From assembly GCA_038213805.1 (NCBI GenBank), contig JBBQSO010000056.1, forward strand, positions 1-35,364: a stretch of DNA of 35,364 bases. The letters are read 5' to 3'. Shown piece after piece: positions 3,051 to 20,396 of this stretch. The translations under genes and the position numbers were made by a program. The DNA comes from Planctomycetota bacterium. GTDB lineage: Bacteria > Planctomycetota > UBA11346. Each line of letters opens with the position of its first letter. The stretch's first letter is position 1. The notes under the pieces are model-generated. The model ran no database searches, was not told the DNA's origin, and saw nothing but the letters and a program-made list of their open reading frames with translations.

Positions 3051-5473
3051 GGTGCACTCGCGGCGCGGCGGTTGAGGAACGGGTAGCTGGTGGCGACGGC
3101 CATGACGATGCCATCCAGACGGTAGCCGTCGGCGGCGCTGGCGCGGGCGATGGCGTCGATCACGCGCTCGTCGGCGTCCTGCAGGCGGCGGCCGAGCGCG
3201 TAGCCCAGCAGGCGCGCGATGAAGGTGCGCGCGAAGTCGTCGCGGTAGGTCAGCAGCAGGCGCTTGAGCCCGTCGGGCGTGCTGAAGCGCCGCCCGCCCG
3301 GCAGTTCGCCGCTGGTGTCGACGAGCGCGCCGGCGTCATCGCGGGTGCGTGCGTGGCCGATGGCGTCGAAGCCCTCCAGGCCGAAGCCGATCTGGTCCAT
3401 GACCGCGTGGCACGAGGCGCAGGCGGGGTCGCTGCGGTGGCGCTCCAGCTTCTGGCGCATGCTCAGGCCCACGCCGCCGTGCTGGTCCTGCTGGTCGAGG
3501 GCGGCGACCAGCGGTGGGGGTGGGGGCGGCGGCGTGCCGAGGATCTCCTCCAGCACCCAGCGCCCGCGCTTCACCGGGCTGGTGCGCGTCGGGTGCGAGG
3601 TGACCATCAGCAGTGCCGGCAGGGTGAGGATGCCGCCGCGGTCGCGGTCCTCCAGCGGCACACGACGCATCTGCCGGCCGGTGATCCCCGCCATGCCGTA
3701 GAAGCGGGCGAGGTCGGCGTTGACGTAGGTGTAGTCGCAGTCGAGCAGCTCCAGCAAGCTGCCTTTATTCTGCAGCACCCCGGCAAAGAGCAGTGCGCCC
3801 TCGTCGTACATCGCCTGGCGCAGCTCGCGCGTCAGCCCGGGGAAGCGCGTGCGGTCGGGCTCGACGATGAAGACGTTGCGCAGCTGCAGCCACTGCCCGG
3901 CGAAGTCGTCGGTCAGGGCGCGCGCGCGCGGGTCGGCGAGCATGCGCCGCACCTCGCCCGCCAGCACCGTGGGCTGGTGCAGGGTACCCGCGGCGGCCGC
4001 GGCGGTGAGCTGCTCGTCCGGCATCGTCGACCACAGGAAGTAGGACAGCCGTACGGCGAGGTCGTAGTCGCCGATGGCGTAGGCGCCGTCCGCACCGGGC
4101 GGGCGCTCCTCTTCGATGCGCAGGAGGAATGACGGCGAGATCAACGCCGCCTTGATCATCAGCTTGACCGCGGCCGAGAACGGCGCGTCCTGCGCGTCGG
4201 CGAGGTCGAAGACGCGCAGCAGCAGGTCGAGCTGCGCGGCGTCGGGCGGGTGGCGGTACGCGCGCGCCGCGAAGTCCGTGGCGATGCGCCGCGCAGCCTC
4301 GCGCTTGGCTAGCCCGGGTCCGGGCGTGGCGGTGAACAGGCGGCGGTGGGCGGCGGTCAGCGGCGCCGCCGGCGGCCCCTGCACGTCGACGCTGTCGATC
4401 AGCAGGCGGCGCGGCCGCGCCACCTCGACCGCGCGCGCCGGGGCGCCGGGGGCGGCGTGCGTGCCGGGGGGCGTGGCGCTGCTGGCGACGGGCGTGGCCA
4501 CCGGGTTGATGAACACCAGCGACAGACGCTTCTGCCCCGGCGTGAGCGTAGTCGTGAAAGCGTAGGCGGCCGGGGACTTCGCGTTCGCCGACACCCGGCA
4601 CTCGTAGGCGGCCACGCCGTCGATGCGCACCACCACCCGCGCCGGTTCGCCGCCGGCGGTCTCGGCGGCGGCCTTGAAACGGATGGTGTAGGCGGCCGCA
4701 TTGGGGACGGGCAGCATCGCCACGGCCTCGCCGGGGCCGCTCAGCGCGCACGGCTGGGGCTTGCCGGCGGCCGGGTCCGCGGCGCGCTCCTGCGCCTTGC
4801 CGTCGACTACCGCGACCAGCTCGGATCCGCTCCAGTGCAGGTCGACGCGGTCGTCGACCACCACACGATCCAGGATGGCGTCGGCGGCGAACAGGTATTT
4901 CTCCATCAGCAGCGGCGACAGCGACAGCACGTCACCATCGCCGTCGAAGCCGTCGCCGACGTCGTCGGCGGGGAAGTCCGCTGCGGGCCTGAAGTCGATG
5001 CCGAAGAGGTCGTGGATGGTGCGGTCGTAGGCGCTGCGGTTGAGGCGGCGGCTGGTCACCCGCCCCGGATCGGGCGGATCGCTGCGTCGCAGCGCGCCGA
5101 TCCACGCGGTGATGCGCTCGCGCTCGTCATCGTCCAGCTGGCGGTGCTTGGCGGGCGGCATCTGGCGCGCCTTGAGCTTCTGCAGCGTGCGCAGCCACAG
5201 CGGGCGCTGCGCCGGGGCCAGCGCGGCCGGCGCCGCCAGCTCGAGATCGAGGTCGCCCTTCTGCACGTCCTTGCCGTGGCACTCGGCGCAGTAGCGGTCG
5301 AGCAGCGGGCGGACCTCGCGGGCGAAGCCCACGGCGAGCGTCGCGGGCGTGGCGGCGGGCGTCGACGCCTCGCCCGCCGCCAGGCACGCCGACGCCCACA
5401 CGGTCGCGGCGCACAGCGCGGCGGCGAGCAGGCCAGGGGGCCGGAGCTGCGGATGGTCCAGGCGCTTCAGCAT
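3047..5473 (-). CDS. Planctomycete cytochrome c / DUF1587-1595-1592-1588-1585 multidomain protein
   Basis: ATG at 5473 follows a GAGGAGG RBS. Heme-binding motifs CAECH and CASCH; family motifs RRLNR, LSYFLWSTMPD, FAGQWL, TSPVKRG and GFGLEGFDAIG. Confidence 0.9.
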   Translation of the reverse strand: MLKRLDHPQLRPPGLLAAALCAATVWASACLAAGEASTPAATPATLAVGFAREVRPLLDRYCAECHGKDVQKGDLDLELAAPAALAPAQRPLWLRTLQKLKARQMPPAKHRQLDDDERERITAWIGALRRSDPPDPGRVTSRRLNRSAYDRTIHDLFGIDFRPAADFPADDVGDGFDGDGDVLSLSPLLMEKYLFAADAILDRVVVDDRVDLHWSGSELVAVVDGKAQERAADPAAGKPQPCALSGPGEAVAMLPVPNAAAYTIRFKAAAETAGGEPARVVVRIDGVAAYECRVSANAKSPAAYAFTTTLTPGQKRLSLVFINPVATPVASSATPPGTHAAPGAPARAVEVARPRRLLIDSVDVQGPPAAPLTAAHRRLFTATPGPGLAKREAARRIATDFAARAYRHPPDAAQLDLLLRVFDLADAQDAPFSAAVKLMIKAALISPSFLLRIEEERPPGADGAYAIGDYDLAVRLSYFLWSTMPDEQLTAAAAAGTLHQPTVLAGEVRRMLADPRARALTDDFAGQWLQLRNVFIVEPDRTRFPGLTRELRQAMYDEGALLFAGVLQNKGSLLELLDCDYTYVNADLARFYGMAGITGRQMRRVPLEDRDRGGILTLPALLMVTSHPTRTSPVKRGRWVLEEILGTPPPPPPPLVAALDQQDQHGGVGLSMRQKLERHRSDPACASCHAVMDQIGFGLEGFDAIGHARTRDDAGALVDTSGELPGGRRFSTPDGLKRLLLTYRDDFARTFIARLLGYALGRRLQDADERVIDAIARASAADGYRLDGIVMAVATSYPFLNRRAASAP

Positions 5474-5625
5474 CGCCACGCCCTCCTCGAGAGACCGGCG
5501 ATGATGCCCGGGCGGCACGGGCGGCCATGCCGCGACCCCGCATCGGCATGGATGTTCTTACGGTATTTTATCGGCTGCCGCGGTGTCTTGGCGGCCATTC
5601 CCTGTGGCAGCCCAGGGGGCGACGC

Positions 5626-6558
5626 TCAGCGCGAGGTTCGGCCCCGCCGCGGCGGCTGCGGGTGGGGCATGATGGCGCCGCTCACCAGGGTGCGGCCGAC
5701 GGTGCTGCCCTGCGGGGTGCCGCGGCCGGGATCCTGGCGCACCGCCAGCGGACTGCAGCCGAAGTAGCGGCTGAAGACGCGCGAGAAGTGCAGCGGATCC
5801 TCGTAGCCGCAGCGGCGCGCCACCTCCTGCACCTGCAGCGCGGTGGCGGTGAGCAGGTGCACCGCGTCGCGCATCCGGCACTCGCGCGCGTAGACCGTGG
5901 GCGAGGCGCCGAAGGCCTTGCTGAAGACGCTGTGCAGATGATTGGGCGAGCGCTCGCAGGCACGCGCGATCTCGGCCAGGGTGGGCATGCGCCGGTAGTG
6001 GCGCTCGATGTAGGCGAGCGCGGTGCGCAGCACCTCGCCACCGTAGTCGCCGGGCGGCGGTCCAAGGCGCGCGCCGATGTGCGCCACCACCTGCAGCAGG
6101 CAGCCCTCGAGCGCGGCCACGGCGTAGGCCGACGCCTCCGCGACGCGCGCGGGCGGCTCCATCCCCAGGCGCGCCGCCTCGCCCACGGCAGTCACCCACG
6201 GGCGGTACTCGGCGAGCGGCAGGGACAGCGGCCGTTCCAGCCGGCCGAGGTGGAGGTCGGCGGAGAGCTGCTCGAGGTTGTAGTTGATCCAGCGGTGGCG
6301 CATGCCCGGCGTGCGCCGGCGCGCGAAGCGGTGGCCGGGGATGAGATGCAGCGCGCCGCCGGCCAGTCGCCACTCCTGCCCGTCGAAGGCGATCGTGCAC
6401 TCGCCCTCGAGAATGTGCCAGATGGTGTGGTTCCAGGTGCGGTAGGGGCCCTTGTCCCACACCGACCAGCCGGCATCGACGGTGTGCTCGCCGCAGGCGG
6501 CGATGCGGATGGCGCCGACATGTGGCAGCGGGCCGGCGCCGGTGAGGGAAAGCGGCAT
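5626..6558 (-). CDS. AraC-family transcriptional regulator
   Basis: Cupin-like N-terminus (ILEGECTI...LHLIPG); C-terminal double HTH (LAEIARAC...HLHSVFSK and VQEVARRCGYEDPLHFSRVFSRYFGCSP). Confidence 0.9.
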   Translation of the reverse strand: MPLSLTGAGPLPHVGAIRIAACGEHTVDAGWSVWDKGPYRTWNHTIWHILEGECTIAFDGQEWRLAGGALHLIPGHRFARRRTPGMRHRWINYNLEQLSADLHLGRLERPLSLPLAEYRPWVTAVGEAARLGMEPPARVAEASAYAVAALEGCLLQVVAHIGARLGPPPGDYGGEVLRTALAYIERHYRRMPTLAEIARACERSPNHLHSVFSKAFGASPTVYARECRMRDAVHLLTATALQVQEVARRCGYEDPLHFSRVFSRYFGCSPLAVRQDPGRGTPQGSTVGRTLVSGAIMPHPQPPRRGRTSR

Positions 6559-6614
6559 GGCGGAAGATCATCCATGCGTCGGCGCCACGCGCCAGTGGCA
6601 GGGGATGCCCCGAG

Positions 6615-7829
6615 TCAGCCCTTGTTCCCGAACATGTTCTTAACGCGCGTCATCAGCGCCTTGCGCCGGCCGTCCCCGACCACGACGCGCCCGCTCGACG
6701 AATCGCCATCCTCCGTGCGCAGCAGTTTGAGCGCCTCGTAGGTCGCGCGCAGCGCCTGCCCAAGCTCCGCGTAACTGGCGAAACGCTCCTCCGGCTGCTT
6801 GGCGAGCATGCGCAGCAGCAGCGCCGAGAGCTGGGGCGGGAAGCCGCTGATCAGCTCGCCGGGCACCGGCGGCGGATCGTGGATGTGGCGGTAGACCAAG
6901 CGCAGCGGATCGCTGTCGGTGAAGGGCGGCACGCCCACGGCGCTGTGGAAGAGGGTGGCCCCGAGCGCGTAGATGTCGGCGCGGAAGTCGGCGTGGTCGG
7001 GGTCGGTGGCCTGCTCCGGCGCCATGTAGGCGGGCGTGCCGGCGACCTCGCCGAGCGGTGTGGCGCGCTGCTCCTCACCGGTGTTGCCGGACAGCACGCT
7101 GTGGCGGGCGAGCCCGAAGTCGACGAGCTTGGCGCGGCCTTCGCGCGAGATCAGGATGTTGCCCGGCTTGACGTCACGGTGCACCAGACCCTGCTGCAGC
7201 CCGGCGCCGAGACCGGCACAGATGTGCATGCCGAGCTTGAGCACGCTCAGCGGGCGCAGCGGCTGGCGTGCGATGGCGCGGCCGAGGCTGACGCCGTCGA
7301 TGAACTCCATGACGATGTAGGCGTGGCGCTCCTCCATGGTGACGTCGTGCACGCGCACCACGTTGGCGTGGCTGATCAGCGAGGTGAAGCGCGCCTCCTC
7401 ACAGAGCTGCTCGGCGAGCTGCGGGCGCTGGCGCAGCACCCACGGCTGCAGCAGCTTGATCGCCACCTGGGTGCGCATCAGCAGGTGGGTGGCGCGGTAG
7501 ACCGCGGCGAAGCCGCCACTGCCGAGCAGCTCCTCGAGGCGGTATTTGCCAAGCACGGTGCCGACGGCGGGCAGCTCATCTTCGCTGCCCGGCGCACCGT
7601 GCCCGGCGCCCGAGAGGTCGGCGGCGTGGGTCGGGGTCGGATCGCGCGTGCCGGCATCGTCGGCCGGACGCGCGCTGACGGGCGCGGCCGGCGCGCCGAC
7701 GAATAGTTCATCGGCGAGCGCGTATCCGGCGAGCGGCGCGCAGCGGCCGGACAGCAGCCCGGGCGCGACGAAACCGTCGCTGGCGAAGCAGCCGTCGAGG
7801 ACCAGGCCGCCGAGCTGGTGCAGGCTCAT
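6615..7829 (-). CDS. Cytoplasmic Hanks-type Ser/Thr protein kinase (404 aa)
   Basis: Motifs GSGGFAAV, VAIK, HRDVKPGN, DFGLA, GTPAYMAPE and DIYALG. Start placed at ATG 7829, which overlaps the upstream stop (ATGA). No transmembrane segment seen. Confidence 0.93.
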   Translation of the reverse strand: MSLHQLGGLVLDGCFASDGFVAPGLLSGRCAPLAGYALADELFVGAPAAPVSARPADDAGTRDPTPTHAADLSGAGHGAPGSEDELPAVGTVLGKYRLEELLGSGGFAAVYRATHLLMRTQVAIKLLQPWVLRQRPQLAEQLCEEARFTSLISHANVVRVHDVTMEERHAYIVMEFIDGVSLGRAIARQPLRPLSVLKLGMHICAGLGAGLQQGLVHRDVKPGNILISREGRAKLVDFGLARHSVLSGNTGEEQRATPLGEVAGTPAYMAPEQATDPDHADFRADIYALGATLFHSAVGVPPFTDSDPLRLVYRHIHDPPPVPGELISGFPPQLSALLLRMLAKQPEERFASYAELGQALRATYEALKLLRTEDGDSSSGRVVVGDGRRKALMTRVKNMFGNKG

Positions 7830-8323
7830 GCGCGGCTCTCCGTCGCCGTGGGGGCCAGCAGCAGGGTGCGCGCGGCGCCCACCGCGGCGGGCGGCAGCAG
7901 TCGTTCGGCCGCGAGCGCCAGCCCGAGCGCGGCGAGGCCATGGCGCTCCGCGAGCGGACCGGCCGGGAAGCCGCCGAGCGCGAGGTGCCCGCCGGCGAAG
8001 CCCACGGGCAGCGGCCGCACTGCTCCGGCGAGCGTCGCGACCTGCAGGCAGCGCCCGGCTCGCAGCGCCAGGGGCAGGCGCCGGCAGGTCAGCAGGATCC
8101 AGCTCTCCGCGCCGGATGGCAGCCCGAGCAGCGCGCCGAGATCGACGGCGACGCGTGGGCTGCCGGCGTGCAGCACCGTACCGAGCAGCGCCGGATGCGC
8201 CTGCGCGGTGGCCGGAGGCGCGGTCAGCGCCTCGGCAAGCAGCACGCGCTCGACCTCGGCGATGGGCAGGGCGAGCAGCCACGGGGCGGCGATCAGCAGC
8301 AGCGCCTGGGCGGGCGGGCTCAT
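7826..8323 (-). CDS. Divergent CheW-like protein
   Basis: LALPIAEVERVL, HPALLGTV...VAVDLGALLGL and LALRAG patterns match CheW. ATGA overlaps on both sides. Confidence 0.7.
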   Translation of the reverse strand: MSPPAQALLLIAAPWLLALPIAEVERVLLAEALTAPPATAQAHPALLGTVLHAGSPRVAVDLGALLGLPSGAESWILLTCRRLPLALRAGRCLQVATLAGAVRPLPVGFAGGHLALGGFPAGPLAERHGLAALGLALAAERLLPPAAVGAARTLLLAPTATESRA

Positions 8324-11259
8324 GGCCTGCGCGTCCAGCGTGCGAGCGCCTGCTGCAGCATCTCGGCGGTGAACGGTTTGGGCAGGTGCGCGCTCGCGCC
8401 GAGCTCGGTGGCCAGGGCGCGATGCTTGTCCGCCGAGCGCGAGGACACCACCACCACCGGCAGATCCTCCAGGCCGGGGGCGGCGCGGATCTCGCGCAGC
8501 AGTTCATAGCCGTTCAGGTGCGGCATCTCGAGGTCGGTGAAGACCAGGTCGAACTCCCCGGCGCGCAGCAGGGCGAGCGCCTCCGCACCGTCGCCGGCCA
8601 TGGTCGGCACGGCGCCGAGCTCGCGCAGGTGGCGCTCGGCGACCTTGCGCACCGACAGCGAATCGTCGACGTAGAGCACGCGCGGCCCGCCGGCCACGGC
8701 AGGCGTGGCGGTGGGCGGCAGCGCCACCGGCGCGGGCGTGGGCGGTGGCGCGACGATGGCGGACTGCTGGAGCAGCCCGGGCACGTCGATGACCGGGATC
8801 AGCGTGCCGTCGCCGGCGATCGCCGCGCCGGAGAACAGGGCGTGGCCAGCGAGCAGCTCGCCGAGGCTGCCGATGACGATCTCCTCCTGACGCAGCAGCG
8901 CATCGACACGCAGCGCCCAGCGCTGATCGCCGAGGCGCAGCACCAGCGCCGGTCCCTGTCCCGCCGGCGGGGAATCGCCCAGGCCGAGCACCGCGACCAG
9001 GTCGCGCAGCACCAGCTGACGACCGGCGTACGGGATGCGCACCGCCCCGGCCGAGGCGGTGGCGGTCAGCTCGCCGAGGTCGAGCAGGCGCTCGATGAAG
9101 TGCATCGGCACCGCGAAGATGCGCCCCTGCGCCACCACCAGCAGGGCGCGGCTGATCGCCAGGGTCAGCGGCAGGGTGACGGTGAAGCAGGTGCCGCCCG
9201 CGGGCAGCGCCGCGACGCGCACCGTGCCGCCCAGGCGCTGGATCTCGTGGCGCGCCGCATCGCAGCCGTAGCCGCGCCCGCTGACCGCGTCGGCGCTGGC
9301 CTGGGTGGACAGTCCGGCCGCGAAGACCAGGTCGCGCACCGCGTCGCTGTCCGCCGGTGTGTCGGCGGCGATCAGGCCGAGCGCAATGCCGCGCCGGCGC
9401 AGGGCGGCGAGATCGAGGCCAGCGCCGTCGTCGCTGACGGTGATGACGATCTCGCCGGACTCCTGGCGCGCCGCCAGGGTGATGGTGCCGTCCGGGGTCT
9501 TGCCGGCGAGCAGGCGCGTCTCCGTCTGCTCGAGGCCATGCGCCACGGCGTTGCGCACCAGGTGCAGCAGCGGGCCGTGCACGGCGTCGGTGAGCGCCTT
9601 GTCGAGCGCGACCTCCTCGCCGGCGGTGGCCACGCGCACGCCCTTGCCGAGGCGTTCCGCGGTCTCGCGCACCGCGACGTGCAGGCGCATGAACAGGCCG
9701 CCGACCGGCACCAGGCGCGCCCGCATCACGCCGCCCTGGATGCCCGAGATGACCCGGCCCATGGACTCGGCGTCCTCGTCGAAGGCGGCGAGCGAGCGGT
9801 CGATGCCGCCCTGCAGCTCGCCGATGTCGCCGCTGATCTCGGCGAGCGCGCGCGCCAGCACGTTGACGTCGTCGTAGCGATCGAGTTCGAGCTCGGTGAA
9901 AACCGCGGCGCCCGTGCCCGCGCTGTCCGCGCCCAGGGCCGCCGCGCCGCCGCGAAGGCGTGCGCCGTCCAGTCCGCTGAACTCGTGCCGTGCGCGGAAA
10001 TCTTCGACGGTCGCGAGCAGGCGCGTGCGGCTGGCGCTCAGCTCGCGCTGTACCGCGGCCAGGCCGCCGATGCGGTTGCCGAGGCGGGCGCGGCCGATCA
10101 CCAGCTCGCCGGCGAGGTGCATCAGACCGTCGAGGTGGCTGGCGGCGATGCGCAGCCAGCGGCCCGCCTCGGCGGGGGCCCTGCTCGCGGTGCCGGCAGC
10201 GTCCGGCGCCGCGTCCGGCCCGTGGTCCGGAGCGGCCAGGGCGCCGATCGCGGCCTCGAGCTCGGCGGGGGCGAGGTCGGGCGCGCCGCACCGGGCCAGC
10301 CCGGCGCGTAGCGCGCGCTGCACGCGCAGCAGCAGGGGCACGGTGCCGGCGGGCAGGGTGCGGCGCTCGCGCAGGCCTTCGAGCAGATCCTCGACGCGGT
10401 GCGCCAGGTCGCCGAGCGCGGCCAGCCCGACGGTCTGCGCCGAACCCTTGAGGGTGTGGTAGTCGCGCAGCAGCTCGGTCAGCGCGCCGCGTCCGCCGCC
10501 CTGGTCGAGCGCCAACGTGTGGCGGTCGAGGCTGTCGAGCAGTTCGCCGGCCTCCTGCGCGAAGGCCTCCACCACCTCGGCCTCGGGCTGGTCGGTGGGA
10601 TCGGATGCAGCTGCGGGTGGGGCGGCAACCCGCGCGGCGACGGGTGCCGGAGCGGGGGCGCCGGCACACGCGGCCGGCTCCTCCGGGAACAGGTAGCCCT
10701 CCTCATCGTCGGCGCCCGTCAGCGACGGTCCGGGGGTCTCATCGGCGAAGACGTAGCCGGTCTCGTCCGCCGGCGGCGCGCCCGCGGACTCCGCTGCACC
10801 CGCCTCCACCGTCATCCCGCGCACCGGCACCTCGTCGAGCTCGGCGAGCGGCAGCGCCGTGGCCGCCGCGAAGGCGGCCGCCACGGCGTCGGCGCCGACG
10901 CGGTCCTTGGCCAGTTCGAGGTCGAGCAGGCCTGCCATGGCGGTCAGGCCGCTGGCGGCGCGCGCGGCCAGCAGCTGCAGGCGGTGCGCGGCGCGCAGCT
11001 GGGTGAGCCGCTCGGTCTCCATCGCCTCGACCAGTTCGCGCAGGGTCACCGCGCTGGCGGTCAACCCGTCGGCGCCGACCAGCGAGCTGCTGCCGGCGAT
11101 GGTGTGGCAGCCGTCGTCGAGCGCGCCGAGCAGCGCGGCTACGTCCTGCACGCTCGGCGCGCCGTGCAGCTGCGCGAGCTGGCCGGCCATGCCGTCCAAC
11201 GCCGCGCTGATGTCGGCGCGGAACGGCCCGTGCACCTCGTCGATGGAGAAGCGCTCCAT
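8320..11259 (-). CDS. cheA: Hybrid CheA (ChpA/PixL-like): Hpt-Hpt-dimerisation-HATPase-CheW-receiver
   Basis: Start MERFS at 11259. Hpt motifs CHTIAGSS and YHTLKGSA; LDGLMHLAGELVI, ELELDRYDD, HLVRNAVAHGLE, DDGAGLD and SGRGYG; C-terminal receiver YVDDS...FTDLEMP...KPF. Confidence 0.95.
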   Translation of the reverse strand: MERFSIDEVHGPFRADISAALDGMAGQLAQLHGAPSVQDVAALLGALDDGCHTIAGSSSLVGADGLTASAVTLRELVEAMETERLTQLRAAHRLQLLAARAASGLTAMAGLLDLELAKDRVGADAVAAAFAAATALPLAELDEVPVRGMTVEAGAAESAGAPPADETGYVFADETPGPSLTGADDEEGYLFPEEPAACAGAPAPAPVAARVAAPPAAASDPTDQPEAEVVEAFAQEAGELLDSLDRHTLALDQGGGRGALTELLRDYHTLKGSAQTVGLAALGDLAHRVEDLLEGLRERRTLPAGTVPLLLRVQRALRAGLARCGAPDLAPAELEAAIGALAAPDHGPDAAPDAAGTASRAPAEAGRWLRIAASHLDGLMHLAGELVIGRARLGNRIGGLAAVQRELSASRTRLLATVEDFRARHEFSGLDGARLRGGAAALGADSAGTGAAVFTELELDRYDDVNVLARALAEISGDIGELQGGIDRSLAAFDEDAESMGRVISGIQGGVMRARLVPVGGLFMRLHVAVRETAERLGKGVRVATAGEEVALDKALTDAVHGPLLHLVRNAVAHGLEQTETRLLAGKTPDGTITLAARQESGEIVITVSDDGAGLDLAALRRRGIALGLIAADTPADSDAVRDLVFAAGLSTQASADAVSGRGYGCDAARHEIQRLGGTVRVAALPAGGTCFTVTLPLTLAISRALLVVAQGRIFAVPMHFIERLLDLGELTATASAGAVRIPYAGRQLVLRDLVAVLGLGDSPPAGQGPALVLRLGDQRWALRVDALLRQEEIVIGSLGELLAGHALFSGAAIAGDGTLIPVIDVPGLLQQSAIVAPPPTPAPVALPPTATPAVAGGPRVLYVDDSLSVRKVAERHLRELGAVPTMAGDGAEALALLRAGEFDLVFTDLEMPHLNGYELLREIRAAPGLEDLPVVVVSSRSADKHRALATELGASAHLPKPFTAEMLQQALARWTRRP

Positions 11260-11264
11260 GCTGA

Positions 11265-13421
11265 TCAGGTCCGGAAACGCCCGATGCTGGAGCGCAGCTG
11301 CTCGGAGAGCTGGCCCAGCCCCTGGGCGATGTCGAGCGAGCCCTGGGCGCTGCGCTCGGTGTCCTGCGCGATCGCCGAGATGCGCTGCATGGTGCCCACC
11401 ACCGACTGCGCCCCGGTGACCTGGGTGCGCGCGGTGCTGGCGATGTCGGTGACCAGCGCGGTCGACTGGCTGGACACCTCCTTGATGCGCGTCAGCGCCG
11501 AACCGGCGGTGGCCACCGCGCGGCCCTCCTCCTCCACCACCAGGGTCTGCCGCTCGATCGCGCTCACCGACTCGGTGGTCTCGGTCTGGATGGTGCGCAC
11601 CAGCTTGTCGATCTCCTGGGTGGCGTTCGCGGTGCGTTCGGCGAGTTTGCGCACCTCGTCGGCGACCACGCTGAAGCCGCGCCCCTGATCGCCTGCGCGC
11701 GCCGCCTCGATGGCGGCGTTGAGCGCCAGCATGTTGGTCTGCTCGCTGATCTTGGCGATGGTGCCGACGATCGAGGTGATCTCCATGCTGCGGTCGCCCA
11801 GGCGCTTGATCTTCTTGGCGCCGGCCTGCACCAGCGCGCGCAGGGTGTCCATGCCCTGGACCACGTCCTGCACCGAGGACGAGCCCTGCAGCGCCGACTC
11901 CTGGGTGCGCTGCGCGGCCGCGGCCGCCGAGTCGGCGTTGCCGCTGACGCGCGTGATCTCGTCGCTCATGCGCTGCACCGCGGTGGTCGCGGCCAGCACC
12001 TCGTGCGCCTGGCGTGAAGCGCCGGTGGCCATGGTCGCGGCCGCGCCGCGCAGCTCGGCCACCGCCTGGTTGGTGCGGTCGAGCTGGATGGTGATCGCGG
12101 CGATCAGCTCCTGCCACGACTCCATCATCTGGTTGAAGGCGTCGCCGACGTTGCCGAGCGTCCCGTCACCGACCTTGGCGCGCGCGGTGAGGTCGCCGTC
12201 GGCGGCGTTCGACACCACGATGAGCAGGCCGCGGATGTCGTCCTGGAGCAGCCCGTGCTCGTCGACGATGCGCTCCTGCGACTCCTTCACCTGGCTGGTG
12301 AAGCCGTTGAACACGTAGCTGATCAGCAGCGCCGCGCCGATGAAGGTCCAGATGCCGATGCCGCGGGTGGCGCGGTAGCGGTCCGCGCGCTCCACGCACA
12401 GCCGGTCAAGCTCGGGCCCGACCGCCTGCTGCAGGGCCTGGATCTCGTCGATCAGCTGCGCCGCGCGCTGGGTCAGGTCGGCGGCCTTGAGTCGCGGCTG
12501 CGCCGGGTAGAGCAGGTTGTCGCGCAGCGCGTCGGTGAAGGCGTGCAGCTTGGCGGCGGTGGCGTCGAAGTGGTCCTTGACCACCAGGCGCAGGCGCGCG
12601 TTGCCCTGGCGGCCCTCGGTGTACTTCTCGTTGTCCTCAAGGGCGCTCTTGAGATCGACGTTGATCAGGTCGTTGGCGGTGGAGGTGATCAGGCCAAGCG
12701 TCCCCGCGAGGTCGGCGCGCTCCTCGTTGGTGAGCACGCCGTCGGCGATCGCGCCAAGACTGGCGGTGCCGGCGCTGGCGACCAGTTCGCCGAGATTGGG
12801 CAGCTTGAGCAGCCACGCGTCCATCATCCAGTAGCTGTCCAGGTCGGGATCCAGGATGAGATTCGAATGGTTGCCGGCCTGGATCCCGATGAGTGTGCCG
12901 GCGATGTAACCGGTGAGCTCGGCGAAAGCCTGGTCGCGCGCCTGCGGCGTGGGGAAGGTTGCGGCCTGGAGCTGCCGCCAGCCGAGGTGCGCCGTGGATG
13001 CGGGCGGATCGTCCGTCCAGCCGTCGAGCACGTTGCGCCACAGCGTGCTGGTCTCGAGCTGCGCGCCGTAGGCGGTCTCTGCCGCTTCGACGTCGGCGAC
13101 CTGGCCGTTGGCGAGCCGGGTGAGGTCGAGGATCTCAGTGCGTGCCGGTCCCTCGACGCCGCTGTAGGCGACCACGCGCAGGCGCTGCACGGTGGCGAGG
13201 AACCTGCGCACCGGCGTGATGTAGGCGACGCCCACGCTCTCCTTGAAGCTGAAGTCGACATCCTTGCTGGTCTGCTTGACGAGCATGAAGGCGACGTACC
13301 CGTCGGGCAGCAGCAGCAACAGGAGCAGCAGGGAGCGCGCGAAGCGCACGCGCTCGATGAAGAAGTAGACCGGGGCAAAGACGATCCGGGCGAAGCGGTG
13401 CCGGGTGTTAAGCGCTGACAT
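11265..13421 (-). CDS. Methyl-accepting chemotaxis protein (PilJ/PixJ-like) with two TM segments
   Basis: ATG at 13421 follows GGAG. TM1, a large periplasmic region and TM2, then a HAMP-like GDLTARA...GDAFNQM and the signalling hairpin ISEQTNMLALNAAIEAARAGDQGRGFSVVADEVRKLAERT. Confidence 0.95.
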   Translation of the reverse strand: MSALNTRHRFARIVFAPVYFFIERVRFARSLLLLLLLLPDGYVAFMLVKQTSKDVDFSFKESVGVAYITPVRRFLATVQRLRVVAYSGVEGPARTEILDLTRLANGQVADVEAAETAYGAQLETSTLWRNVLDGWTDDPPASTAHLGWRQLQAATFPTPQARDQAFAELTGYIAGTLIGIQAGNHSNLILDPDLDSYWMMDAWLLKLPNLGELVASAGTASLGAIADGVLTNEERADLAGTLGLITSTANDLINVDLKSALEDNEKYTEGRQGNARLRLVVKDHFDATAAKLHAFTDALRDNLLYPAQPRLKAADLTQRAAQLIDEIQALQQAVGPELDRLCVERADRYRATRGIGIWTFIGAALLISYVFNGFTSQVKESQERIVDEHGLLQDDIRGLLIVVSNAADGDLTARAKVGDGTLGNVGDAFNQMMESWQELIAAITIQLDRTNQAVAELRGAAATMATGASRQAHEVLAATTAVQRMSDEITRVSGNADSAAAAAQRTQESALQGSSSVQDVVQGMDTLRALVQAGAKKIKRLGDRSMEITSIVGTIAKISEQTNMLALNAAIEAARAGDQGRGFSVVADEVRKLAERTANATQEIDKLVRTIQTETTESVSAIERQTLVVEEEGRAVATAGSALTRIKEVSSQSTALVTDIASTARTQVTGAQSVVGTMQRISAIAQDTERSAQGSLDIAQGLGQLSEQLRSSIGRFRT

Positions 13422-13432
13422 GCGGAAGGCTC

Positions 13433-13978
13433 CTAGGCGGGGACGGCGCGGTGGGCGCTGCTGGCGTTGTGGGCGCCGTGGGCACGGAACGTGCGCAGGG
13501 CGTCGAGACGGGCGAGCAGCTCGCTGGAGGCGACCAGCGTGGCGACCAGCCCGGGATGCTCCGGGACGGTCAGGAAGCCGGCGACGATGGCTGGCTCGAT
13601 GGCGCGGTCGCCGGCGCGGAAGGCGAGCGCGGCGCGGTCGTGGACGCCGGCCGCGCCGCGGATCACCAGGCCGGCGAGGCTGGCCCCGCGCGCGGCCGGG
13701 CGCAGCACCAGCACGCGTGGGCGCGGCTCGGGCGCGACGCGCTCGCCGGGCAGCCCGAGCAGCTGCGCGGTGTCGATCACCGCCAGCGCCTGGCCGCGCA
13801 GATTGGCGATGCCGAGCACCGCCGCCGGGCAGCGCGGCAGCGGCGTCACGCCGCCCAGCTCGCGCACCTCGCCGACCAGGCCGACGTCGAAGGCGAAGCA
13901 GCCCGCGCCGAGCCATACCAGGCAGACGCGCCCGGCGCCGGCGGCGGCGATGGCCAGGGTGGGAACGGCGTCGTTCAT
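13433..13978 (-). CDS. cheW: CheW coupling protein
   Basis: FAFDVGLVGEV and VTPLPRCPAAVLGIANLRGQALAVID. ATGA overlap with the upstream receiver gene. Confidence 0.9.
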   Translation of the reverse strand: MNDAVPTLAIAAAGAGRVCLVWLGAGCFAFDVGLVGEVRELGGVTPLPRCPAAVLGIANLRGQALAVIDTAQLLGLPGERVAPEPRPRVLVLRPAARGASLAGLVIRGAAGVHDRAALAFRAGDRAIEPAIVAGFLTVPEHPGLVATLVASSELLARLDALRTFRAHGAHNASSAHRAVPA

Positions 13979-14337
13979 GGCGCGAAGCGCTTGATGACCT
14001 GGCGGATCTGTTCGGCGCTGAAGGGCTTGACGATATGGTCGTCGGCGCCCTGCTTCTGCCCCCAGAAACGGTCGGTGTCGGTGCCCTTGCGGGTGATCAG
14101 CACCACCGGGATGGAGGCGGTCGCAGCGTCGCGCTTCAGCCGTCGGCAGGCGCTGAAGCCGTCAAGCCGCGGCATCACCACGTCCAGCAGGATCAGCGCG
14201 GGCCTGAACTCCTTGGCCTTGGCCAGCGCCTCTTCGCCGTCGACGGCGTAGGCCGGCTGGTTGCCGCTGGCCAGCACCACCTTGCCGAGCAGCTCGCGCT
14301 CGCTCTGCAGGTCATCGACGATCAGGACGGTGCTCAT
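13975..14337 (-). CDS. cheY: Single-domain response regulator (PilH/PixH-like CheY)
   Basis: VLIVDD, ILLDVVMPRLDGF, TDRFWGQKQGA (typical of PilH) and KPF. Confidence 0.9.
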   Translation of the reverse strand: MSTVLIVDDLQSERELLGKVVLASGNQPAYAVDGEEALAKAKEFRPALILLDVVMPRLDGFSACRRLKRDAATASIPVVLITRKGTDTDRFWGQKQGADDHIVKPFSAEQIRQVIKRFAP

Positions 14338-14395
14338 GGGTGCTTCCGCGGGCGACGGCATCCTGCCGGGGCGCGCTCGTGGTGGGATGGAGTGA

Positions 14396-16159
14396 TCATG
14401 CGCCGATGCGTCCGTTCATCAGGCGCTGGACGGACGTGCGGTGCAGCGGTCGCGCCAGCACGTGGTCGAAGCCAGCCGCGAGCAGCGCGCGCGCCTGGGT
14501 GGCGTCGGCGTGCGGCAGCAGCGCGACCAGGGTCGTCGCCGAGGTCTCAAGGCGCCCGCGCAGGGTCAGCGCCAGCGCCGCCGCCTCGACCGGGACGGTG
14601 ACGTCGACCAGCGCCACGCTCGCGCCGCCGGCGGCCAGACGCTCCTCGGCCTGGACCGCCGTGCAGCCGCTGACCACGGTCGCGCCATGCCCGTCGCCGC
14701 CCTGGTGGAGCAAGCGCGCGAACGCGCTCGTCAGGCCGGTCTCGGGCGCCGCGCACACCAGCAGGCTCGCGGCCGGCGCCGCCGCCGCGAGCGGCTGGAC
14801 GAGCGCCACGTGCAGCAGCCGGTAGAGCGCATGGAAGGCGTCGAAAGTCGACAGTCCAAGCTGCGCGATGAGGTCTTTCACGCGCTTGCGGCCGTTGATC
14901 TGCAGCAGCACGCGGCGCTCGAGCGCGTCGAGGGTGAAGCGCGGCAGTCGCGCCAGGAAATCGGGGGCGCGCACGCACACCAGGTCGAGCGAGGTGACCT
15001 GCAGCTCAAGCTGCGCCCAGTCGTCGACCAGGCGCAGCCGCTCAAGGTCGAGCTGCTCCGCCGGGATGGCCAGCCCCACGCGCGTGGCGAAGGCCGGCGG
15101 CGCACCGTCCGTCCAGGCGAACGGCAGCGGCCCCTGGCCGAGACGCTGCACCAGTGCGGCGGCGCCCAGGCGCTGCAGCAGCGCGGGGCAGTCCGCGGCT
15201 GGCACCGCCGCCTCAACCCACGCGACCAGTTCCGGGACGCCGTCCGGCGGGGCGCCGCTGGGCACCGGGACGCCGGCGGCGGCGGCGGCACGGCGCGCCT
15301 CGTCCGCGTCGCCGGGCACGCATAGCAGCAATTCGCCGCGGCTGAAATGCAGCGCGAGGCCGCGCGCGCCGCCGACCTGCAGCACGCCGCTGCGCCCACT
15401 CTCGGCGAGCACACGCACCAGCCGCGGCAGCGGCAGCAGCCCGGTGCTGCCCGCGAGTTCGGCGTCGATTGCGCCCGTATCCGGCGCCGGCGCGCCCGCG
15501 CCGGGCAGCAGCGGCGCCAAACCGCCGAGCAGCGCCCCCATGCTCTCGGGCGTAAGCAGCTTGCGCGCGAAGAACGCCGCCGGTGACTGGCCGCGCAACT
15601 CGCCGCACCACTCCGGGATGCGCGCCAGGCGGTCGCGCAGCGCGCTGAAGGCGGCGCGCGCGGCCTCCTCGCAGACGCGCGCATCGCGTTCCGCCACGGG
15701 CGTGGCGGTGGGCGTGGCGATCTCGACGGTCGCGGCTCCCGCCATGGCGGTGCGGACCGGCTCCACGTCGACGGCTACGGCTTCCTCCGGCAGGCGCGCG
15801 AGCACTTGCGCGACCACCTGGCTGATCGCGCCGGGCGTAAAAGGCTTGGCGACGAACGCGACCACCGCCGGACAGTGGCGGAACAGGGCGCGGATGCCGT
15901 CACCCTTGGCCGACATCACCACGATCGGGATGCTGGCGGTGCGCTCGTCCGCAGCCAGGCGCACGCACACCTGGTCGCCGGTGAGGTCGGGCAGCACGTG
16001 GTCGAGCAGGATCAGGCGCGGGCGCAGGCGCTGCGCCAGGGCGATGCCGTCGCCGGCGCAGGCCGCGACCTCCAGCGCGTGGCCCTGCCGGCCGAGCGCC
16101 ATCTCCAGCAGCTTCCGGATAGTCAGGCTGTCGTCGATCACCAGCAGGGGCGCGCTCAC
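14396..16159 (-). CDS. Response regulator: receiver + DUF4388/PatA-N-like domain + degenerate C-terminal receiver
   Basis: N-terminal VIDDS...LLDHVLP...KPF; central LAGSTGLLPLPRLVRVLAESGRSGVLQV...LHFSRGEL; C-terminal ALVDV...GFDHVLARP. GTGA overlap with the upstream gene. Confidence 0.8.
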   Translation of the reverse strand: MSAPLLVIDDSLTIRKLLEMALGRQGHALEVAACAGDGIALAQRLRPRLILLDHVLPDLTGDQVCVRLAADERTASIPIVVMSAKGDGIRALFRHCPAVVAFVAKPFTPGAISQVVAQVLARLPEEAVAVDVEPVRTAMAGAATVEIATPTATPVAERDARVCEEAARAAFSALRDRLARIPEWCGELRGQSPAAFFARKLLTPESMGALLGGLAPLLPGAGAPAPDTGAIDAELAGSTGLLPLPRLVRVLAESGRSGVLQVGGARGLALHFSRGELLLCVPGDADEARRAAAAAGVPVPSGAPPDGVPELVAWVEAAVPAADCPALLQRLGAAALVQRLGQGPLPFAWTDGAPPAFATRVGLAIPAEQLDLERLRLVDDWAQLELQVTSLDLVCVRAPDFLARLPRFTLDALERRVLLQINGRKRVKDLIAQLGLSTFDAFHALYRLLHVALVQPLAAAAPAASLLVCAAPETGLTSAFARLLHQGGDGHGATVVSGCTAVQAEERLAAGGASVALVDVTVPVEAAALALTLRGRLETSATTLVALLPHADATQARALLAAGFDHVLARPLHRTSVQRLMNGRIGA

Positions 16160-17091
16160 GATCGCACCTCCAGCACCGCGCCCGCGACGTTGGCACCCAG
16201 GCGCCCGGCCTCCGCCTCAAGATGTCCGGCGAGCGCCCGTGCACCGCGTGCCGCCACCTCGGCCAGGACCGCGGGCGTCAAGGCCGGGTCAGCGGGTAAC
16301 GGACCGCAGACGAGCAGCACATCGCCGGTCTCCGCCGCCAGGCCCTGGTAAAGGCCCGGGCCCGCCGGCGTGAAGTCGTACCAGGTGGGCAGCCGCGCCG
16401 GCGAATACAGGGCGAGCAGCCCGCCGGTGGTGCTGCCCGCGACCAGCCAGCGCCGCCCGGGCGCATCGAGGTGGATGAGCGCGCCCAGCGCGTCGCCCTG
16501 GCGCGCCAACAGGCGCGTGAGCTGGTCGGAGCCGGGCTGGCCGTCCCAGGCCGCCAGGCTCGGCAACACGCTACGCAAGAGCTCCGCGTCGCTGCCGGCC
16601 GCACCGCCGGCGAGCATCGCGGTGAGCCCCTGCCCGTCACCGCCGGCGAGCTGCGGAAGGCGGCCGTGACCGGCGGCGAATGCGGTGCCCCAGCCGCGCC
16701 CATCCTGCTGCTCCGGCCTCGCCGCGTTGCCGTTCGGCCGCCAGCGCGCCGCCGCGGCGCAGCGCTCGGCGATCAGGGTGGTCGGCAACGGCGGCCCGAG
16801 CAGGGTCAGGCGGCCGCCTGCGAGCAGCACATAGGGTTGCACGAGCGGCTCGCTACCGATCAGCAGCAACGGCGTGCGCGGGAAGAGCCCATCGATGATG
16901 GGGGCGAGCGCGGCCGGCAGGCGCCGCTCGCCGCGCGGCAGGGCGGCGATGACCAGCGTGGGGGCCGCTTCCGGCGGCATCCCGTTGCCGTCCCAGGTGG
17001 CTAGGCGGAGCGCAGCCTGCGCCGTGGCCTGGGTGAGGCGCGCCTGCAGCTGCGGATCGAGGTCGCGGTCCAGCATCAATGCGGTCCTCAC
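16156..17091 (-). CDS. Hypothetical protein; possibly degenerate receiver + degenerate PP2C/SpoIIE-like domain
   Basis: GTGA overlaps on both sides support that it is a real gene. The domain call rests on weak patterns (PTLVIAAL...TPLLLIG, AETGDVLLVCG, terminal GAVLEVR). Confidence 0.6.
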   Translation of the reverse strand: MRTALMLDRDLDPQLQARLTQATAQAALRLATWDGNGMPPEAAPTLVIAALPRGERRLPAALAPIIDGLFPRTPLLLIGSEPLVQPYVLLAGGRLTLLGPPLPTTLIAERCAAAARWRPNGNAARPEQQDGRGWGTAFAAGHGRLPQLAGGDGQGLTAMLAGGAAGSDAELLRSVLPSLAAWDGQPGSDQLTRLLARQGDALGALIHLDAPGRRWLVAGSTTGGLLALYSPARLPTWYDFTPAGPGLYQGLAAETGDVLLVCGPLPADPALTPAVLAEVAARGARALAGHLEAEAGRLGANVAGAVLEVRS

Positions 17092-17534
17092 GAGGCCACC
17101 GCCACCGTCCCGGCGAGATGGGCCGCGATCTGTCGGGGCAGGATCAGCACCGCCACCCGCCTGTCGCCGAGTCGGCCGGCCTGCGCCCAGGCACTGGGCA
17201 GGGCCAGGCGCGGCAGCGGCCCGCTCGTGGCGGTAGCTGTCGCCATGCCCTCGACCCCATCGATCACCAGCGCCCAGGCTGGGGTGGTGGTAACCAGAAT
17301 CACCAGCCGCGGCTGACGGGGCGCCGGCAGCGACCCGTCGGGCAGCGTATCGATCACCGGATGGACGCCGTCGTCACTGATCGCCAAGCCCGCCACCCAC
17401 GTCGGCGACCAGGGCGGGGGCGGGGTGCACATGGCACTGCTGGCATTCCCGACCGCCCCGACCGGCAGCGTCAGCAGCAGGCCGCCGCGCCTGACGACGA
17501 GCACCTGATCTGAGATGGGGGTGGCAACAGACAT
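17088..17534 (-). CDS. Divergent CheW-like protein, first gene of the chemosensory operon
   Basis: LTLPVGAV, PPWSPTWVAGLA...VHPVID and WALVIDGVEG patterns match CheW. Confidence 0.7.
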   Translation of the reverse strand: MSVATPISDQVLVVRRGGLLLTLPVGAVGNASSAMCTPPPPWSPTWVAGLAISDDGVHPVIDTLPDGSLPAPRQPRLVILVTTTPAWALVIDGVEGMATATATSGPLPRLALPSAWAQAGRLGDRRVAVLILPRQIAAHLAGTVAVAS

Positions 17535-17603
17535 GCGCGTAACACGCTACCGATTACGCGGTTGCCTGCCAATGTAACGAAACGCAACAGTGCTCGCCGG
17601 CGT

Positions 17604-18584
17604 TTAGCCGATCGCGATCATGCGCTCGATCGGCAACCGCGCGCGCGCGATCACCGCTGCATCGAGGTGCAGCTCCGGACGGCCATCACGCAGGCAGTCG
17701 CGGATCTTCTCCAAGGTGTTCAGGCGCATGTGCGGACAGGTATTGCAGTGCGTGCAGCTGCCCTGCTGGGTGCCGCCGACCGCGGCCGGGGCGAGCAGGA
17801 AGGTCGCCAGCGGCGCGGCCTTGCGCATCTGATGGACGATACCCGGCTCGGTGACCACCAGATAGATCCCCCGCGGATCGCCGCGCTGGACGCGCTGCAG
17901 CAGCTGGGTGGTGCTGCCGACCACGTCGGCGAGGGCGCGGATCGGCAGCGGACATTCCGGATGCACCAGCGTCACGCAGCCGGGGTGGGCGGCCTGCAGG
18001 TCGATGATCGCCTGCTGGCTGAAGTTCTCGTGCACCTCGCAGGAGCCCTCCCAAAGCACCAGCGGCCGCCCGGTCTCGCGGCTGACCCAGTCGCCCAGGT
18101 ACTGGTCCGGGGCGAAGATGATGGGCTGGTCGGCCGGGATCGCGCGCACCACCGCGCAGGCGTTCGACGAGGTCACGCACCAGTCCGACAGCGCCTTGAC
18201 CTGCGCCGAGCTGTTGACGTAGGTGACCACCACGTGCCCGGGATGGGCGTCGATGAAGGCCTTGAAACGGTCCGCCGGGCAGGAGTCCGACAGCGAGCAG
18301 CCCGCGCGCAGGTCCGGCAGCAGCACGCGGCGCTGCGGATTGAGGATCTTCGCCGTCTCGGCCATGAAGTGCACGCCGCAGAAAACGATGGTCGAGGCGG
18401 TGGTCGCCGCGGCCTGGCGGGCGAGCTGCAGGCTGTCACCGATGAAGTCCGCGACATCCTGGATGTCGTCGTCCTGGTAATAATGCGCGAGGATGACGGC
18501 GTCCCGGTCACGCTTGAGGCGGGCGATCTCTGCGGCGAGACCGGTCTTTGCGTTCGCGGTGGGCGGGGTGGCGGTTTCTGGCAT
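17604..18584 (-). CDS. nadA: Quinolinate synthase A
   Basis: ILAHYYQ, GDSLQLA, FCGVHFMAETAKILNP, AGCSLSD, YVNSSA, CEVHE, VHPEC and CPHM (three Fe-S cysteines). Confidence 0.97.
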   Translation of the reverse strand: MPETATPPTANAKTGLAAEIARLKRDRDAVILAHYYQDDDIQDVADFIGDSLQLARQAAATTASTIVFCGVHFMAETAKILNPQRRVLLPDLRAGCSLSDSCPADRFKAFIDAHPGHVVVTYVNSSAQVKALSDWCVTSSNACAVVRAIPADQPIIFAPDQYLGDWVSRETGRPLVLWEGSCEVHENFSQQAIIDLQAAHPGCVTLVHPECPLPIRALADVVGSTTQLLQRVQRGDPRGIYLVVTEPGIVHQMRKAAPLATFLLAPAAVGGTQQGSCTHCNTCPHMRLNTLEKIRDCLRDGRPELHLDAAVIARARLPIERMIAIG

Positions 18585-18768
18585 GGCCAATCACGCTAGG
18601 CGCCGCGGCGGCGCGGGAAAGCGCGGTGCGGCGCGGCCTGGAACAATGGCGTTCACGCACCCAGTGGGACGGCTACGGGCATCATCGCTTGCCGCGCAGC
18701 GGCCGCCGGGCCATAGTGGACGGCCGGCGCCGTGGCGCCGCCGCGTACATCATCAGCCGAGGTCCGCC

Positions 18769-20394: not shown

Positions 20395-20396
20395 AC

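Follow-up and report, generated by a model that had tools for sequence, protein, structure and literature searches.

A chemosensory operon carrying a Hanks-type kinase and a probable pseudo-receiver/pseudo-phosphatase, conserved between Planctomycetota and Myxococcota

Introduction

Few signalling machines are understood as well as chemosensory arrays, whose known accessory parts are methylation enzymes, phosphatases and CheV. The Pil-Chp system of Pseudomonas aeruginosa includes homologues of CheR and CheB, named PilK and ChpB. Chemosensory systems without methylation enzymes occur in cyanobacteria; in Synechocystis, the PATAN domain is an output domain that binds PilB1/PilC, and the CheY-like PixH antagonises the PATAN regulator PixG (accessible text of PMC11181946). 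Multi-Hpt CheAs with a C-terminal receiver belong in about 93% of cases to the alternative cellular functions (ACF) class or the type IV pilus (Tfp) class (accessible text of PMC10782961). Here we analysed a 35,364-nt stretch of Planctomycetota DNA (contig JBBQSO010000056.1, positions 1 to 35,364; hereafter the window), which carries a nine-gene chemosensory operon that contains a Hanks-type Ser/Thr kinase gene and a gene for a 311-aa protein of RssB-like architecture.

Numbered g1 to g9 from first gene to last, the genes encode a CheW-like protein (g1), a putative pseudo-receiver/PP2C-like protein (g2), a response regulator with a PATAN domain (g3), a CheY-like regulator (g4), a canonical CheW (g5), a methyl-accepting chemotaxis protein (MCP, g6), a hybrid CheA (g7), a second extra CheW-fold protein (g8) and the kinase (g9). 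We describe the gene content, the folds of the products, the intact or degenerate state of their catalytic residues and the conservation of the set across phyla. The interpretation we prefer, to which we give an even chance of being right, is that this single operon combines a non-flagellar pathway of the Tfp/ACF type with a conserved accessory module for Ser/Thr phosphorylation. In that module, g1 and g8 would sit in the receptor lattice and recruit g2 and g9, the kinase would tune the pathway, and g2 would be a non-catalytic partner. The recurrence of the set in distant bacteria points to a so far undescribed extension of a well-known signalling machine.

Results

Organization of the operon

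The nine genes are co-oriented on the minus strand within positions 6615-17534 of the window, bounded by the stop codon of the kinase gene (6615) and the ATG of the first gene (17534). Neighbouring genes overlap by 4 bp (GTGA or ATGA) at five of the eight junctions (g1/g2, g2/g3, g4/g5, g7/g8 and g8/g9). The remaining three junctions have gaps of 34, 11 and 5 nt, 34 nt being the widest in the operon. The gene list, the order and the five overlaps had all been given correctly by the first-pass annotation of this DNA. The start codons of the MCP (13421), CheA (11259) and kinase (7829) genes were set from the translations of the open reading frames (ORFs) and the junction sequences.

Pfam matches at E≤0.01 were obtained for seven of the nine genes, six of them above the gathering score and g1 below it, and NCBIfam models added no specific name for any of the nine cluster proteins. 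By these sequence criteria the nine are real genes and not chance ORFs, because seven match Pfam while g2 and g8 each have a family of conserved homologues. A promoter and terminator scan of positions 5400-18800 is uninformative at the G+C content of the window (∼72%): it gave 0 promoter-like sites and 2 terminator-like ones, with 2.0 expected.

Conservation of the gene set in two phyla

Relatives were collected by a CheA-seeded scan of genome contigs with six peptide patterns from the window CheA, a search that reaches close relatives only. The loci were therefore selected by CheA similarity, not by the presence of a kinase. The scan matched 122 stretches, five of which encode a relative, in four loci (L001-L004). 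L001 comes from an uncultured Planctomycetota metagenome-assembled genome (MAG), with a CheA 88% identical to that of the window. L002, labelled Deltaproteobacteria and placed by tree in Myxococcota, and L003, from a Polyangiaceae MAG (Myxococcota), each encode a CheA with 43% identity. L004 is a 2.6-kb Planctomycetota fragment that ends inside cheA and was left out of scoring.

All three scorable loci carry, on one strand, genes for a CheW-like protein, a g2-like protein, a REC-PATAN regulator, CheY, MCP, a multi-Hpt hybrid CheA, a g8-like protein and a Hanks kinase. The kinase, g2 and both extra CheW paralogues (g1 and g8) are kept in every one of them. The first-pass annotation had proposed that the kinase belongs with the array genes, and an orthologous kinase is indeed present at all three loci, with 44-90% identity. 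No tblastn match at 1e-5 was obtained for the g1 protein or for the g8 of L002; these were identified by position, Pfam, profile search and tree.

Amino acid identities for the pairs window-L002, window-L003 and L002-L003 were 58, 62 and 60.5% for CheY, 45, 44 and 47% for the kinase (90% for window-L001), 43, 43 and 48% for CheA, 41, 43 and 48% for the MCP, 32, 31 and 35% for g3, and 31, 31 and 30% for g2. Since the L002 and L003 clusters are as distant from each other as from the window, the loci represent three deep lineages. Judged by these identities, the divergence of the kinase has kept pace with that of the che genes.

L003 keeps the order regulator-CheY-CheW-MCP-CheA, while in L002 the g5-type CheW domain is displaced beyond the kinase. 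The L002 kinase is therefore internal to the cluster, with che genes on both sides. The flanks differ at every locus, and nadA is common only to the window and L001. Downstream of the kinase lie an AraC-family gene in the window, RsmB and Mur ligase genes in L001, and other genes in L002 and L003. Because the flanking genes are not conserved, the conserved block ends at the kinase.

These data bear on a passenger explanation: the kinase and g2 would share the location and transcript of an ordinary Tfp/ACF operon without any functional relation to it, and CheR/CheB encoded elsewhere would carry out adaptation. The few independent lineages, the abundance of Hanks kinases in Myxococcota and a view limited to the 35-kb window and 10-kb flanks, beyond which distant cheR/cheB genes are possible, all leave room for it. 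Against it stand the retention of the kinase, g2 and g8 in all three scorable loci over two phyla despite changing flanks, the divergence of the kinase in step with the che genes, its internal position in L002, and the 4-bp overlaps that join cheA, g8 and the kinase gene. We regard this explanation as very improbable. The orthology of the kinases and the internal position argue against chance adjacency, without excluding chance.

In L001, g3, cheA and the kinase gene are broken into pieces that lie in different frames relative to the window (5126-6885, 10001-12950 and 13484-14651), probably through frameshifts in the MAG assembly and not as true pseudogenes. The genes directly downstream of the L003 cluster, on the opposite strand (17697-22276, minus strand), encode a diguanylate cyclase of REC-GGDEF architecture and a large hybrid histidine kinase that has an Hpt domain and three receivers. 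A link to cyclic di-GMP specific to L003 is possible.

g2 encodes a probable pseudo-receiver fused to a PP2C-like domain

The 311-aa product of g2 (16156-17091) matched no Pfam or NCBIfam family. A homologue search with the single sequence gave at least four proteins, and the same search with a 139-row profile gave at least five; alignment A1 consists of four g2 homologues and the three locus-encoded orthologues. A profile search of 1.84 billion representative proteins returned 264 family members at E≤0.001 and 238 at E≤1e-10, mostly 285-380 aa long among the 150 matches listed. For conservation analysis, alignment A3 (n=139) was made from the window g2 and 138 of 153 proteins, those with 285-380 aa; the 15 of other lengths were dropped.

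The AlphaFold (AF2) model of g2 has a mean predicted local distance difference test (pLDDT) score of 79; its N-terminal half is flavodoxin-like and its C-terminal half is a beta-sandwich. In Foldseek, the model is closest to full-length RssB, with both domains matched (6od1, 3f7a, 3eq2 and 8t85; E from 5e-8 to 3e-6), and next to RsbX, tPphA, PstP, SpoIIE and other PP2C phosphatases; 37 matches have E≤0.001. The PP2C beta-sandwich fold is present in g2, as matches to RsbX, tPphA, PstP, SpoIIE and the C-domain of RssB at E from 5e-7 to 3e-3 indicate. A language-model look-alike search led to SpoIIE-type PP2C clusters with a score of 0.85, which serves as a lead only. At the sequence level, the Pfam PP2C, SpoIIE and Response_reg models matched none of the 139 family members at E≤1. 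The family profile searched against PDB sequences gave one chance-level match and no solved PP2C.

Across the 139 members, R56, R233 and P235 are invariant, and S230, D257, E308, G54, G93, R94 and W215 are at least 90% conserved. At position 50, the D57-equivalent at the end of beta3 in the model, the four commonest residues are Gly (53), Ala (38), Glu (11) and Val (11), together 113 of 139; the receiver aspartate is not among them. At the end of beta5 (positions 99-101, strands taken from the model) the members have G/P/P and no Lys. Between residues 120 and 311, only four positions are acidic in at least 50% of members: E127, D257, position 289 and E308. These were judged against what we take to be the canonical list of PP2C metal ligands. 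Because the receiver aspartate is missing and few acidic positions are conserved family-wide, g2 probably consists of a pseudo-receiver and a PP2C-like domain that is itself probably inactive. The first-pass description of the 311-aa product as REC/PP2C-like and a probable pseudo-phosphatase thus agrees with the RssB/PP2C fold match and with the family-wide lack of the receiver aspartate and most metal-ligand acids. The family has the REC and PP2C folds, yet none of the 139 full-length members scanned matches the Pfam PP2C or receiver models. The family, as yet unnamed, is for that reason a candidate both for an entry of its own among domain families and for the study of how bacteria use pseudo-phosphatases.

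The architecture of g2 is that of the adaptor RssB, and this favours a different account in which the Ser/Thr branch is a downstream output. The array or CheA, perhaps acting through the REC-PATAN proteins or through docking of g2 to an Hpt domain, would control the kinase, and the targets would lie outside the cluster, for example in motility, polarity or transcription; g2 would be an adaptor in the manner of RssB, binding its partner in a phosphorylation-dependent way. S230, R233 and P235, invariant or nearly so, could be a phospho-site or a docking motif and would suit such a role. CheA, on the other hand, could not switch g2 in the fashion of RssB, because g2 lacks the receiver aspartate. 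We hold this account to be somewhat unlikely; further points on both its sides are given with the kinase and in the Discussion.

Three CheW-fold proteins

Besides the canonical CheW g5 (13433-13978, 181 aa; Pfam CheW 55.1 bits), the operon encodes two extra CheW-fold proteins. The divergent g1 (17088-17534, 148 aa), whose stop codon overlaps the start codon of g2 in GTGA, matches Pfam CheW with 18.2 bits (E=0.0019; cutoff 23.5), and its positional orthologues pass the cutoff with 56.8 bits in L003 and 24.6 bits in L002. The 165-aa g8 (7826-8323), whose gene has ATGA overlaps with both cheA and the kinase gene, had no Pfam match at E≤0.01. A look-alike search (Atlas) with g8 returned CheW in 27 of 30 matches. 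A profile search found 14 homologues, none with a precomputed Pfam domain and one annotated as a hypothetical protein of a Myxococcales MAG. The AF2 model of g8, built from 16 sequences, has a pLDDT of 82, and its 17 best Foldseek matches are all CheW or CheA P4-P5, with template modelling (TM) scores of 0.5-0.74; the next match has E=0.43. According to this model, g8 is a CheW-fold (double-SH3-like) protein too divergent for sequence models, the fold comparison having settled what profile-profile comparison was too weak for. Its first-pass label, CheW-like, is in keeping with the model.

A maximum-likelihood tree of CheW domains was calculated from 16 rows, with five of 16 g8-family rows taken and near-duplicates left out. 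The g1, g5, g8 and CheA-P5 domains each formed a single cross-phylum group, with supports of 81/82, 90/94, 97/98 and 89/92, respectively, and the tree has 3 label changes against a shuffled mean of 9.4. The g8 group adjoins CheA-P5 and not CheW, and g5 forms its group together with the CheW of L003 and the CheW domain encoded beyond the L002 kinase gene. Because each of the four forms one cross-phylum group, the extra paralogues are, by this tree, old and dedicated lineages. Each is translationally coupled or close to a partner gene, g1 to g2 and g8 to the kinase g9. A complex prediction for g8 with the kinase scored 0.00 and gave no answer, speaking neither for nor against binding.

A bolder version of our interpretation is that the cluster represents a distinct, unclassified array type. 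The CheW/P5-like paralogues would build the kinase and a pseudo-receiver/pseudo-PP2C 'reader' into the lattice, Ser/Thr phosphorylation would replace the CheR/CheB memory and adaptation, and the module would have moved as a unit between Planctomycetota and Myxococcota. We think it unlikely that all of this holds.

The kinase g9

The gene g9 (6615-7829) encodes a 404-aa protein that matches Pkinase with 143.3 bits against a cutoff of 31.7. The motifs VAIK122, HRD217, DFG237 and APE270 are intact, with GSGGFA as the glycine-rich loop (alignment A4), and the Hanks-type Ser/Thr kinase is predicted from them to be active. No hydrophobic segment was found, indicating a soluble protein. The N-terminal 95 aa matched no Pfam family at E≤1. 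Alignment A4 revealed short motifs in this otherwise variable region that are conserved across phyla: hydrophobic-x-P-G/D-L-hydrophobic, then A-P-L ... acidic-hydrophobic-F, and L-P-x-V-G directly before the kinase domain. They are possible docking motifs.

The conserved motifs of the N-terminal region, together with the intact catalytic motifs, are also what would be expected if the kinase were an independent input. It would then sense a cytoplasmic cue through its N-terminal region or partners and feed this second signal into the His-Asp pathway by phosphorylating the MCP, CheA or the regulators. No sensor domain was recognised by Pfam in the N-terminal 95 aa, and two dedicated CheW paralogues plus a pseudo-enzyme exceed the needs of a simple input. 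We consider an input role improbable. The lack of a sensor or membrane segment of its own means that the kinase needs an upstream regulator under the account in which the Ser/Thr branch is the output, and so counts in favour of that account.

The core pathway

The chemosensory core, consisting of the MCP, CheW, the CheA domains and a receiver, is complete, with Pfam models above gathering scores. The DD/D/S-T/K acceptor sets are intact in the N-terminal REC of g3, in g4 and in the REC of CheA.

The 587-aa g3 (14396-16159) is a response regulator with REC at residues 6-116 (Response_reg 56 bits; acceptor set DD, D53, S83 and K105) and a weak DUF4388 (PATAN) domain at residues 241-382. The DUF4388 match had E=0.0036 with the whole protein and 0.00044 with the excised region, both below the cutoff, and the orthologues score above it (44.6 and 32.5 bits). 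The C-terminal 126 aa gave weak matches to PDB receiver domains (E 0.0074-0.03), in line with the REC-like C-terminus read at first pass. The beta1 and beta3 acidic positions of this tail are not conserved among the three orthologues, and it looks like a degenerate REC-like domain. The single-domain CheY-like regulator g4 (13975-14361, 128 aa) matches Response_reg with 80.8 bits.

The transmembrane MCP g6 (11265-13421, 718 aa; MCPsignal 139.9 bits) has hydrophobic segments at about 20-50 and 354-375, and the ∼320-aa sensor region between them is presumably periplasmic. The first 400 aa of g6 and those of its two orthologues matched no GAF, PAS or other Pfam domain at E≤1. Past the hairpin tip, the arm has about 140 residues, which is a rough indication of a 40-heptad receptor, the heptad classes being those we take to be standard. 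There were 0 matches in g6 to what we take to be the methylation-site consensus.

CheA (g7, 8320-11259, 979 aa) has the domain order divergent Hpt, Hpt, dimerisation (H-kinase_dim), HATPase (HATPase_c), CheW(P5) and REC (Response_reg, 861-972), and no P2 was matched with Pfam. One Hpt is above the cutoff; the divergent one lies in the N-terminal 140 aa, which give a weak Hpt match (19.6 bits) and can be aligned to a solved P1-type domain of CheA, the histidine being retained. The orthologues carry 3 and 5 Hpt stretches.

Methylation genes and class placement

A Pfam scan at E≤1e-4 of 118 further frames of the window (stop-to-stop frames of at least 130 aa on both strands, 127 in total minus the nine cluster-gene frames) revealed no CheR, CheB, CheD, CheC or CheZ domain. 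Likewise, no CheR or CheB domain was found in 69 frames of at least 180 aa flanking the L001-L003 clusters. The earlier observation that cheR and cheB are missing near the cluster therefore extends to four clusters. No type IV pilus genes were seen in the window. In L001, a frame with a prepilin-type N_methyl motif lies about 4 kb downstream, which is not evidence of pilus linkage.

The CheA feature of the Tfp class in the scheme of Wuichet and Zhulin, multiple Hpt domains with a C-terminal receiver and no P2, is found in g7, and its gene order, two CheY-like regulators followed by CheW, MCP and CheA, is that of g3-g7. The CheA architecture does not separate Tfp from ACF, because both classes share it (accessible text of PMC10782961).

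Surroundings of the operon

An AraC-family gene (5626-6558, minus strand) lies 56 nt downstream of the kinase gene and is co-oriented. It was rejected as a tenth member, being absent after the kinase in L001, L002 and L003. Further downstream (1605-5518, minus strand), a DUF1552 (HXXSHH) gene stands beside a DUF1592/1588/1587/1585/1595 gene with a planctomycete cytochrome c motif. Such a pair is typical of Planctomycetota, and it fits the Planctomycetota label of L001, the closest locus.

On the plus strand, 24709-25686, 26811-27563 and 27702-28880 encode a GHMP kinase, a class II aldolase and a prokaryotic ketohexokinase, respectively. The long minus-strand ORFs 26973-28889 and 28971-30680 had no Pfam match and are probably antisense artefacts of the high G+C content. 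A DnaA gene (29010-30623, plus strand) has Bac_DnaA, Bac_DnaA_C and Hda_lid domains, and the cumulative GC skew peaks at ∼26-28 kb, just before dnaA. The window may lie near a replication origin; the sign change of the skew is not as expected for one. An SMC/RecF-like ATPase and a TPR protein (31852-34545, plus strand) are followed by a STAS-domain protein of the anti-sigma-antagonist type (34542-35081, plus strand), 17 kb from the cluster, for which no evidence of a link was found.

Discussion

By homology, the MCP g6 would control the two-Hpt hybrid CheA through the canonical CheW g5, and CheA would phosphorylate the CheY-like g4 and the REC of g3. The PATAN domain of g3 would be the main output, binding a polar or type-IV-pilus motor component by analogy with PixG, and the role of antagonist or phosphate sink would fall to g4 and the CheA receiver. 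In the accessory module that we favour, g1 and g8 would occupy CheW/P5-type positions in the receptor array and bring in their translationally coupled partners, g2 and the kinase g9. The kinase would phosphorylate array or regulator proteins on Ser/Thr and so set the gain of the pathway, providing a slow feedback in a system without methylation enzymes nearby. Predicted to be unable to accept or hydrolyse a phosphoryl group, g2 would serve as a phospho-dependent binding or regulatory subunit and not as an enzyme.

Several points weigh against this interpretation. All contacts between the proteins, the substrates of the kinase and the physiological output of the pathway are inferences. The g1 match of the window falls under the Pfam CheW cutoff, and the g8 family compared with the cluster CheWs by hhalign gave a probability of 9%, which is weak support at the sequence level. 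The assignment of g2 as a probable pseudo-phosphatase rests on conservation counts, not on residue-by-residue structural superposition. The CheR/CheB negative covers the 35-kb window and 10-kb flanks, and the type IV pilus negative covers the window. Cyanobacterial Tax systems function without CheR/CheB and without such a kinase, so the missing methylation enzymes alone need no substitute. The independent lineages number only three, because a scan with six peptide patterns of one CheA finds close relatives only. Hanks kinases are very abundant in Myxococcota genomes, which makes adjacency by chance more likely. Finally, a second REC-PATAN gene lies between g8 and the kinase gene in L002 (∼14388-15977) and L003 (13862-15364), so the adjacency of g8 and kinase is not universal.

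The second REC-PATAN proteins have a C-terminal region of about 240 aa without a Pfam family, and the window and L001 lack the gene. Its place directly before the kinase gene with tight spacing, in both L002 and L003, also favours the account in which the array controls the kinase as its output. Counting against that account, no candidate external target is conserved beside the cluster, the flanks being different in every locus. The output and feedback readings are computationally indistinguishable.

If our preferred interpretation is true, a Hanks kinase, an RssB-like pseudo-enzyme and two dedicated CheW-fold paralogues together make a new kind of chemosensory accessory module. The operon would then be a concrete and testable case of wiring between His-Asp and Ser/Thr phosphorylation. 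Among the papers listed in the full-text literature covered, none was seen to describe a chemosensory cluster that has both a PP2C-like protein and a Hanks kinase; the comparative surveys of Wuichet and Zhulin (2010) and Sharma et al. (2018) lie outside that coverage. In the accessible text of a survey of CheW classes (bioRxiv 10.1101/2022.05.07.491037), the words 'Pkinase' and 'serine' do not occur.

Each part of the module can be compared with a described counterpart. Auxiliary adaptors such as CheV and the multiple CheW classes resemble g1 and g8 in being extra CheW-fold proteins thought to specialise array contacts (accessible text of bioRxiv 10.1101/2022.05.07.491037); g8 differs from them in that the Pfam CheW model misses it and that it groups beside CheA-P5. 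Of known structures, that of RssB, an adaptor made of REC and a PP2C-type domain, resembles g2 most closely across the two domains. No sequence similarity between them was detectable, and unlike RssB, g2 has neither the phospho-acceptor aspartate nor the beta5 lysine, and its gene follows that of a CheW paralogue in a che operon. Pairs of a Hanks kinase and a PP2C phosphatase, such as PknB-PstP, share with the window an intact kinase and a PP2C-fold protein in one operon. In contrast to such pairs, g2 lacks most conserved acidic metal ligands, its family has 0/139 PP2C/SpoIIE matches, and both genes lie within a che cluster.

Among the systems closest to the core, the Pil-Chp system of P. aeruginosa (PilG, PilH, PilI, PilJ, PilK, ChpA and ChpB) is like the window cluster in having two CheY-type regulators ahead of CheW, MCP and CheA. 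The Pil-Chp regulators are single-domain, and there are no kinase, PP2C-like or extra CheW genes, unlike in the window cluster. ChpA, like g7, has multiple Hpt domains, a C-terminal receiver and no P2 (accessible text of PMC10782961); g7 has only two Hpt domains.

Also among the closest is Tax1/Pix of Synechocystis (PixG-PixH-PixI-PixJ-PixL, Tfp class), which has, in the same gene order as the window, a PATAN regulator, CheY, CheW, MCP and a hybrid CheA with a C-terminal receiver. Both have two response regulators and a PATAN domain, the output domain in Tax1 and the predicted one in the window. Tax1 has no methylation enzymes (accessible text of PMC11181946, as for the following comparisons with Pix proteins), and none was found in the 35 kb of the window. 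PixG and other PatA-type regulators have PATAN followed by REC, whereas g3 has REC, PATAN and a degenerate REC-like tail, so that the order is reversed. PixJ is a photoreceptor, whereas g6 has a transmembrane, presumably periplasmic sensor region with no recognised domain. On its predicted domain architecture, the cluster is not Pix-type in the strict sense, because the domain order of the regulator is reversed and the receptor is not a photoreceptor. The first-pass comparison with PatA-like/Pix-type systems holds for the gene order and the PATAN regulator; it fails for the REC-PATAN-REC-like domain order and for the MCP, which has no photosensor. Tax1, as described in the accessible text of PMC11181946, has no Hanks kinase, no pseudo-REC/PP2C protein and no pair of extra CheW paralogues, and the window cluster has them all.

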